From Escherichia coli (GTDB taxonomy: Bacteria > Pseudomonadota > Gammaproteobacteria > Enterobacterales > Enterobacteriaceae): 64,000 nt of DNA. Below the pieces are notes generated by a model that was given only the letters and a program-made list of their open reading frames with translations, did not search any database and had not been told where the DNA came from. Positions 13,857 to 14,416 of this stretch are shown piece after piece (the stretch's first letter is position 1; each line of letters begins with the position of its first letter). Both the position numbers and the translations under genes were made by a program. Where the stretch lies: the NCBI RefSeq assembly GCF_003334315.1, contig NZ_QOWR01000017.1. One strand, written 5' to 3'.

Positions 13857-13885
13857 TTGACTCTATGACGTTACAAAGTTAATAT
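13857..13885 (+). promoter_or_regulatory. Candidate sigma70 promoter of the yceD-rpmF-plsX-fab operon (TTGACT-N17-TAATAT)
   Basis: -35 ttgact 13857-13862, 17-bp spacer, -10 taatat 13880-13885; predicted start site 2-3 nt before the yceD ATG (13895). Confidence 0.45.
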
Positions 13886-13894
13886 GCGCGCCCT

Positions 13895-14416
13895 ATGCAA
13901 AAGGTAAAATTACCCCTGACTCTCGATCCGGTTCGTACGGCTCAAAAACGCCTTGATTACCAGGGTATCTATACCCCTGATCAGGTTGAGCGCGTCGCCG
14001 AATCCGTAGTCAGTGTGGACAGTGATGTGGAATGCTCCATGTCGTTCGCTATCGATAACCAACGTCTCGCAGTGTTAAACGGCGATGCGAAGGTGACGGT
14101 AACGCTCGAGTGTCAGCGTTGCGGGAAGCCGTTTACTCATCAGGTCTACACAACGTATTGTTTTAGTCCTGTGCGTTCAGACGAACAGGCTGAAGCACTG
14201 CCGGAAGCGTATGAACCGATTGAGGTTAACGAATTCGGTGAAATCGATCTGCTTGCAATGGTTGAAGATGAAATCATCCTCGCCTTGCCGGTAGTTCCGG
14301 TGCATGATTCTGAACACTGTGAAGTGTCCGAAGCGGACATGGTCTTTGGTGAACTGCCTGAAGAAGCGCAAAAGCCAAACCCATTTGCCGTATTAGCCAG
14401 CTTAAAGCGTAAGTAA
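13895..14416 (+). CDS. yceD: DUF177 protein YceD (23S rRNA accumulation protein)
   Basis: 173-aa [23 protein letters not shown]...; immediately upstream of rpmF. Confidence 0.92.

Follow-up and report, generated by a model that had tools for sequence, protein, structure and literature searches.

Leaderless mRNAs are rare in Escherichia coli. Romero 2014 lists five, from rhlB, pgpA and the prophage repressor genes dicA, racR and ymfK, and Lange 2017 sets a ceiling of ~1.7% of genes; most of the known cases are prophage genes. In these examples the promoter abuts the AUG, no Shine-Dalgarno (SD) sequence precedes it, and the leader is shorter than 10 nt, which is the operational cut-off of Romero 2014 (at most 4–7 nt in Lange 2017). 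The rhlB, racR and ymfK mRNAs have a leader of 0 nt. Leaderless mRNAs, for which λ cI and Tn1721 tetR are the classic models, are expected to be kasugamycin-resistant (Lange 2017), and extra 5' nucleotides lower leaderless initiation according to Krishnan 2010, as that work is cited in Nakahigashi 2014.

The promoter considered here is itself a described object. RegulonDB and EcoCyc hold yceDp2 (P2) with the same transcription start site (TSS) 2–3 nt before the ATG, the same −10 box and the same transcription unit (in RegulonDB, yceD-rpmF P2), and we find no difference for E. coli; a 2026 preprint names both yceDp1 and yceDp2. By ribosome profiling, Nakahigashi 2014 counted yceD-rpmF among the operons whose genes differ in translation, the ribosome density on yceD being lower than on rpmF, and described yceD as "without 5'-noncoding leader" and less efficiently translated. 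yceDp2, its TSS and its leaderless reading are already in the literature and databases (RegulonDB; Mendoza-Vargas 2009; Romero 2014; Nakahigashi 2014; Lange 2017), so the E. coli facts in themselves add little. The modest new point is that the promoter/start-codon layout is conserved across bacterial orders, which makes it more probable that the lack of a leader serves a function.

Coordinates below refer to the window (the whole 64-kb stretch of E. coli DNA analysed), in which a position equals the NC_000913.3 position minus 1,132,899. The region is present in 5424 of 5426 complete E. coli genomes. The yceD coding sequence (13895–14416, + strand) encodes a 173-residue DUF177/PF02620 protein and has an ATG start in the list of open reading frames (ORFs), in agreement with the MG1655 annotation (1146794–1147315). 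The gene is co-transcribed with rpmF, the second cistron (14468–14641, + strand), and, further on, with the plsX-fab lipid genes; the products of the yceD-rpmF operon are L32 and a factor for 23S rRNA accumulation. On the same strand, yceDp2 comprises a −35 hexamer, TTGACT (13857–13862), a 17-nt spacer, ctatgacgttacaaagt (13863–13879), and a −10 hexamer, TAATAT (13880–13885). A 9-nt stretch, GCGCGCCCT (13886–13894), separates the −10 hexamer from the ATG, and the entire layout from 13857 to 13897 reads TTGACT-ctatgacgttacaaagt-TAATAT-gcgcgccct-ATG. The discriminator, GCGCGCC (13886–13892), is G or C at 7/7 positions.

The preliminary description had placed TTGACT-N17-TAATAT at 13857–13885 and the yceD ATG at 13895, and the sequence confirms this, with a gap of 9 nt. 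The promoter is a good one and not near-perfect: 9 of 12 hexamer positions match the σ70 consensus (5/6 in the −35, 4/6 in the −10). The −10 hexamer has the A at position 2 and the T at position 6 that are looked for in a σ70 promoter, and the spacer, at 17 nt both here and in all orthologs examined, lies within the σ70 range of 17 ± 1 nt. In a consensus scan yceDp2 was the sole σ70-like site between 12500 and 16500, where shuffled sequences lead one to expect 3.4; the identical scoring rule returned 50 matches across the window, and the exact TTGACT-N17-TAATAT pattern occurs there once. Six of the 50 matches have a start codon 5–11 nt downstream that opens an ORF of at least 80 residues, and the annotation check covered two of these, yceD (an annotated start) and a match at 53748. 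The latter (window 53710–53750; ATGACA-18-TATCAT, 10/12, 9 nt ahead of the ATG of a 144-residue frame) is a chance look-alike of the yceD layout, its ATG being internal to pepT. A hexamer match by itself is unexceptional and proves nothing; yceDp2 stands above chance because of experimental TSS mapping and conservation, not because of its motif score.

Published 5'-end data place two starts upstream of yceD. We converted U00096.2 coordinates to current MG1655 coordinates with an offset of 777 for this segment, derived from ymfK and confirmed with the yceD start in Kim 2012 (1146017). Table S1 of Mendoza-Vargas 2009, built on 454 5'-end reads, lists a yceD TSS at −2 with frequency 8, marked 'New' and quality class 1, to which the −10 'GTTAATAT' was assigned (PATSER 4.47; the −10 hexamer of yceDp2), and a second TSS at −145 with frequency 2 and −10 TTTAAACT, marked 'Known, yceDp1, distance 0'. 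Table S2 of Romero 2014 likewise lists both, as FWD_(II)-1146015 (window 13893, −2), which is TAP-enriched, and FWD_(I)-1145872 (−145, class I), each flagged as a RegulonDB overlap. Class II in that study denotes TAP-enriched sites off the leading edge of transcription, a pattern that its authors find consistent with alternative promoters lying downstream of, and nested under, a stronger promoter. Kim 2012 reports a yceD TSS only at 1145872 (−145; 491 reads, 5'UTR of 145), with no site at −2 in its TSS list, and S4 Table of Lange 2017, which draws on RegulonDB, gives 'yceD-rpmF, CCTA, P2' and counts two promoters.

The mapped TSS of yceDp2 thus falls at 13892–13893 (+ strand), leaving a leader of (C)CU before the AUG: 2 nt in Mendoza-Vargas 2009 and Romero 2014, 3 nt as read from 'CCTA' in Lange 2017. 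A start 2–3 nt before the ATG had been predicted from the hexamers, and the two 5'-end datasets and RegulonDB by way of Lange 2017 bear the prediction out. The published start at 13893 lies 8 nt past the −10 hexamer, within the 6–9 nt expected for the 5'-triphosphate end of a σ70 transcript. A start well upstream, the outcome that would have told against the prediction, is also present (−145, window 13750), so that it applies to one of the two mapped starts. Kim 2012 additionally assigns to rpmF two TSSs inside yceD, at 13973 and 14168 (old coordinates 1146096 and 1146291; 16 and 23 reads), the latter also class II in Romero 2014; these internal sites imply that rpmF has promoters of its own inside the yceD coding sequence.

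The start codon of yceD is secure. In the comparison set (80 species-level genomes, mostly Enterobacteriaceae, with YceD identities of 88–100%), 80/80 species have an in-frame TAA at −15, formed by the initial three bases of the −10 hexamer, and between this TAA and the ATG there is no start codon. In codons 1–40 of the 80 orthologous loci, substitutions at codon positions 1/2/3 number 9/10/33, and this concentration on third positions indicates that the N terminus is translated. The ATG is invariant in the 80 species and in all distant orthologs examined, and YceD has been detected by proteomics. Together with the MG1655 annotation, the upstream TAA and the substitution pattern leave the start at 13895 as originally assigned, with no alternative start codon. 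The absence of an SD also holds up: between −20 and −1 of yceD the best anti-SD duplex is −0.4 kcal/mol, weaker than that of 79% of random 20-mers from the window, as against −8.8 kcal/mol for the rpmF SD (GAGGAG, 14454–14459, + strand). The first 10 nt of the P2 transcript, AUG included, are unpaired in the predicted fold. At the beginning of the gene, codons 1–10 (13895–13924) vary at 4/10 third positions across 80 Enterobacteriaceae, against 29/30 in codons 11–40; these near-frozen synonymous sites point to nucleotide-level selection on the initiation region.

With a leader of 2–3 nt, the P2 mRNA is near-leaderless rather than fully leaderless. A start at −2 or −3 lies outside the strict definition (0-nt leader), and the leader falls within both operational cut-offs; an AUG start without an SD, a further mark of leaderless mRNAs, is present. 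The near-leaderless mRNA proposed in the preliminary description therefore exists, as one of two yceD mRNAs. Leaderless behaviour is another matter. [quoted passage not shown] A leader of 2–3 nt may itself clash with kasugamycin. This sensitivity, together with yceDp1 and the sRNA gene sraB, whose terminator adjoins the −35 hexamer, was absent from the preliminary description.

The second promoter, yceDp1, lies inside sraB. The sraB gene (13690–13858, + strand; MG1655 b4418) matches Rfam RF00077 over the full model, positions 1–169, with 210.6 bits against a gathering threshold of 130. It ends in an intrinsic terminator, a hairpin followed by a T-tract (13826–13856, + strand; identified from the Rfam structure line, with a fold of −11.2 kcal/mol), and the last 2 nt of the SraB T-tract overlap the −35 hexamer of yceDp2. 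Three studies (Mendoza-Vargas 2009; Romero 2014; Kim 2012) map the yceDp1 TSS to 13750, downstream of a −10 element, TAAACT, at 13738–13743 (+ strand). Since this TSS is internal to sraB, P1 transcripts must pass the SraB terminator to serve yceD, and otherwise end as a short SraB-like RNA. The P1 mRNA has a 145-nt leader, which also lacks an SD.

The arrangement of P2 and the start codon is strongly conserved. TTGACT-N17-TAATAT-GCGCGCCCT-ATG, with both hexamers and the discriminator, is identical in 80/80 species; 33 of the 38 positions from −38 to −1 are invariant, and the longest invariant run covers 25 nt, from −17 to +8, while just 30 of the 173 third-codon positions of yceD are invariant in the same set. 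The stem of the SraB terminator varies in sequence among the 80 species, and the P2 promoter flanking it is constant. The exact motif also occurs in Erwinia, Pectobacterium and Ewingella, which represent three more enterobacterial families (Erwiniaceae, Pectobacteriaceae and Yersiniaceae), and the Enterobacterales symbiont Ca. Malihini olakiniferum has TTGACT-17-TAATAT-TCCAGCCCT-ATG.

The same geometry recurs in other orders. The yceD orthologs are preceded by TTGACT-17-TAATAT-TCGCGCCCT-ATG in Salinivibrio kushneri (Vibrionales), TTGACT-17-TATCAT-GCGCGCCCT-ATG in Dongshaea marina (Aeromonadales), TTGACT-17-TAATAT-GCGCGCGCT-ATG in Paraglaciecola (Alteromonadales) and TTGACT-17-TATGAT-TCGCGCCCT-ATG in Corallincola (named by its source only). 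A weaker version, TTGTTT-17-TACTAT-TCGGCCGCT-ATG, was found by eye in Idiomarina (Alteromonadales), and a metagenomic ortholog with 34% YceD identity and yceD-rpmF-plsX synteny has TTGACA-17-TACTAT-TGTGAACTT-ATG. The gap between the −10 hexamer and the ATG is exactly 9 nt in every distant ortholog, and the spacer, fixed in length, is unrelated in sequence outside Enterobacterales. The discriminator is GC-rich in the Vibrionales, Aeromonadales and Alteromonadales representatives and not in the metagenomic ortholog. Another representative, an apparent YceD of '49% identity' (L089; Logan SRR27475802, protein P0123), was discarded: it is the E. coli sraB-yceD region with every G read as A, a database artefact that probably arose from bisulfite-type reads.

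Judged by these comparisons, the layout is under strong purifying selection, and the pattern is the one to be expected if selection acts on the distance from P2 to the start codon. The invariance of the 9-nt interval across orders argues for a functional, not an accidental, lack of a leader. Our literature search found no paper describing cross-order conservation of the P2-ATG geometry, and found 'leaderless' linked neither with DUF177 nor, beyond Nakahigashi 2014, with rpmF.

SraB and P1 are distributed more narrowly. In a covariance-model search SraB was full-length in Salmonella and undetected upstream of the orthologs from the other orders. Erwinia, Pectobacterium and Winslowiella have shortened SraB-like matches of ~112 nt (about 112 nt upstream of yceD), which score 36–41 bits, short of the gathering threshold of 130; the P1 −10 'TTTAAACT' and the terminator are retained in them, and the central hairpins are missing. 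Because SraB is reduced or undetected where the P2 layout persists, the P2-ATG design is, on this phylogenetic distribution, older and wider than SraB and P1. Directly 5' of the −35 hexamer, the T-rich tract (TTTTCTT; 13849–13856) persists in four of the ortholog loci (L088, L090, L092 and L093), from orders in which SraB was not detected, and may be a part of the promoter (UP-like) and not a terminator tail alone.

We consider it likely that yceDp2 is a working σ70 promoter that gives rise to a near-leaderless mRNA from which YceD is made independently of an SD, with P1 as a second source; our confidence applies to this explanation as a whole. RNA polymerase starts at a C located 2–3 nt before the AUG, leaving no room for an SD on the P2 yceD-rpmF mRNA. 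YceD would then be synthesized from this mRNA by SD-independent, 5'-end-proximal 'leaderless-type' initiation, and the inefficiency of such initiation in E. coli would keep YceD output, and the YceD:L32 ratio from the shared transcript, low. L32 would be made at a high level from the same transcript through the strong SD of rpmF itself. By analogy with ribosomal promoters, the GC-rich discriminator and the C start may render P2 responsive to growth rate and ppGpp. P1 also feeds yceD, by read-through of the SraB terminator onto a long leader without an SD.

Some of the published data weigh against this explanation and favor a larger role for P1. It is conceivable, and we hold it only tentatively, that P2 is a minor promoter and that functional yceD mRNA derives mainly from yceDp1 read-through, the leadered and SD-less message being translated by ordinary 30S initiation with the help of an A/U-rich stretch upstream of the AUG. 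The 491 reads at −145 in Kim 2012, with none at −2, fit such a scheme, as do the class I and class II assignments of the −145 and −2 sites in Romero 2014, the class II label indicating that transcription runs into the region from upstream. Leadered mRNAs are typically kasugamycin-sensitive, and yceD is listed as sensitive with the 146-nt UTR (Lange 2017), though with the two 5' ends confounding the value; a leader of 2–3 nt, not 0, likewise counts against a leaderless mode. Against a dominant P1, the reads of Mendoza-Vargas 2009 favor the −2 site (8 versus 2), an intrinsic terminator stands between P1 and yceD, and the long P1 leader has no SD to offer either. The weightiest point is the invariance of the P2 geometry and its survival in orders in which no SraB was detected, which is hard to explain if P2 is unimportant.

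Conservation of the block from −38 to +27 could in principle reflect something other than a promoter. Leader operators are common in ribosomal-protein operons, and an RNA operator in the P1 leader (for feedback by L32 or YceD, for example), with the 5' end at −2 incidental, would share that precedent and would account for the unusually strong conservation, which within Enterobacteriaceae extends to the synonymous sites of the first ~9 codons. We regard this as very improbable. All that distant taxa retain is the pair of hexamers, the length of the spacer (17 nt) and the gap of 9 nt, with the spacer free to vary in sequence; this is the signature of a promoter and not of an RNA element. Neither the P2 5' end nor the P1 leader folded into structure beyond that of shuffled controls (z-scores of −0.13 and −0.38), no compensatory covariation was seen, and the 5' end at −2 is TAP-enriched. 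That the hexamer match is a chance one and the −2 ends stem from artefact or degradation, as the abundance of 9/12 matches (50 in the window; 3.4 per 4 kb in shuffles), the one TSS dataset of three without the −2 site and the lack of an entry for yceD or neighbouring coordinates, in either coordinate system, in the Ettwiller 2016 Cappable-seq supplements (files that may not be the TSS table and are thus uninformative) might suggest, is effectively refuted by two independent methods that put a 5' end 8 nt past the −10, one of them with TAP enrichment, by the RegulonDB listing of P2, and by a site invariant in 80 species whose geometry is conserved across orders.

The yceD gene resembles the E. 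coli leaderless genes rhlB, pgpA, dicA, racR and ymfK in its promoter abutting the AUG, its lack of an SD and its short leader, and differs from them in other respects. Its leader is 2–3 nt, unlike the 0-nt leaders of rhlB, racR and ymfK. The five leaderless mRNAs of Romero 2014 are all class I, whereas the yceD site is class II, nested under upstream transcription, and for this reason yceD is missing from that list. Unlike the E. coli examples, yceD is kasugamycin-sensitive and heads an operon with a ribosomal-protein gene. A conserved housekeeping gene with ties to ribosome biogenesis, yceD offers a good natural test case for the means by which, and the reason for which, a leaderless-type start is retained on a core gene in a bacterium that uses SD sequences.

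The operon also has parallels among mixed-function operons. As in rpsP-rimM-trmD-rplS and dusB-fis (Nakahigashi 2014), a low-output non-ribosomal cistron and a high-output cistron for an abundant protein share one transcript; the low output of yceD is attributed to the missing 5' leader and not to a weak internal ribosome-binding site.

A further comparison concerns regulation. The rrn P1 promoters, ribosomal-protein promoters and the CTP-initiated fis promoter form a stringent, ribosomal-type group with GC-rich discriminators. P2, with its GCGCGCC discriminator and C start, would by analogy belong beside them; our literature search found no ppGpp/DksA or CTP data specific to P2.

A more far-reaching proposal, which we think rather unlikely, sees in the near-leaderless yceD start an ancient design of the gammaproteobacterial yceD-rpmF operon, kept by selection and not peculiar to E. 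coli. With YceD translation dependent on initiation close to the 5' end, perhaps of the 70S type, the amount of YceD made could be tied to the condition of the ribosome pool, separately from L32, which comes from the same growth-rate-controlled transcript. Were this so, yceD would be one of a handful of housekeeping genes whose leaderless-type mRNA is shared by several orders, in a lineage with few mRNAs of this kind.

Several minor features of the region were noted. No start at the annotated 5' end of SraB (13690) appears in the three TSS datasets, and the exponential-phase 'SraB' signal may largely be a ~109-nt P1 transcript that ends at the SraB terminator. The first ~37 nt of SraB overlap, in antisense orientation, the 5' UTR and start codon of yceF (start at 13696, TSS at 13726, both on the − strand; yceF TSS 1145848 in the old coordinates of Kim 2012), which suggests a possible cis-antisense interplay between SraB and yceF. 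Between rluC and yceF, a REP-like element (13032–13104) matches Rfam naRNA4 on both strands with 53–54 bits, the gathering threshold being 59.5. By eye, a GC-rich hairpin is apparent in the yceD-rpmF spacer (14420–14448; ctccccg...cgggga), and further GC-rich hairpins in the rpmF-plsX spacer (14641–14700; tcacgca..tgcgtga and ttccccag..ctggggaa); the hairpins of both spacers could be RNA stabilisers or attenuators.
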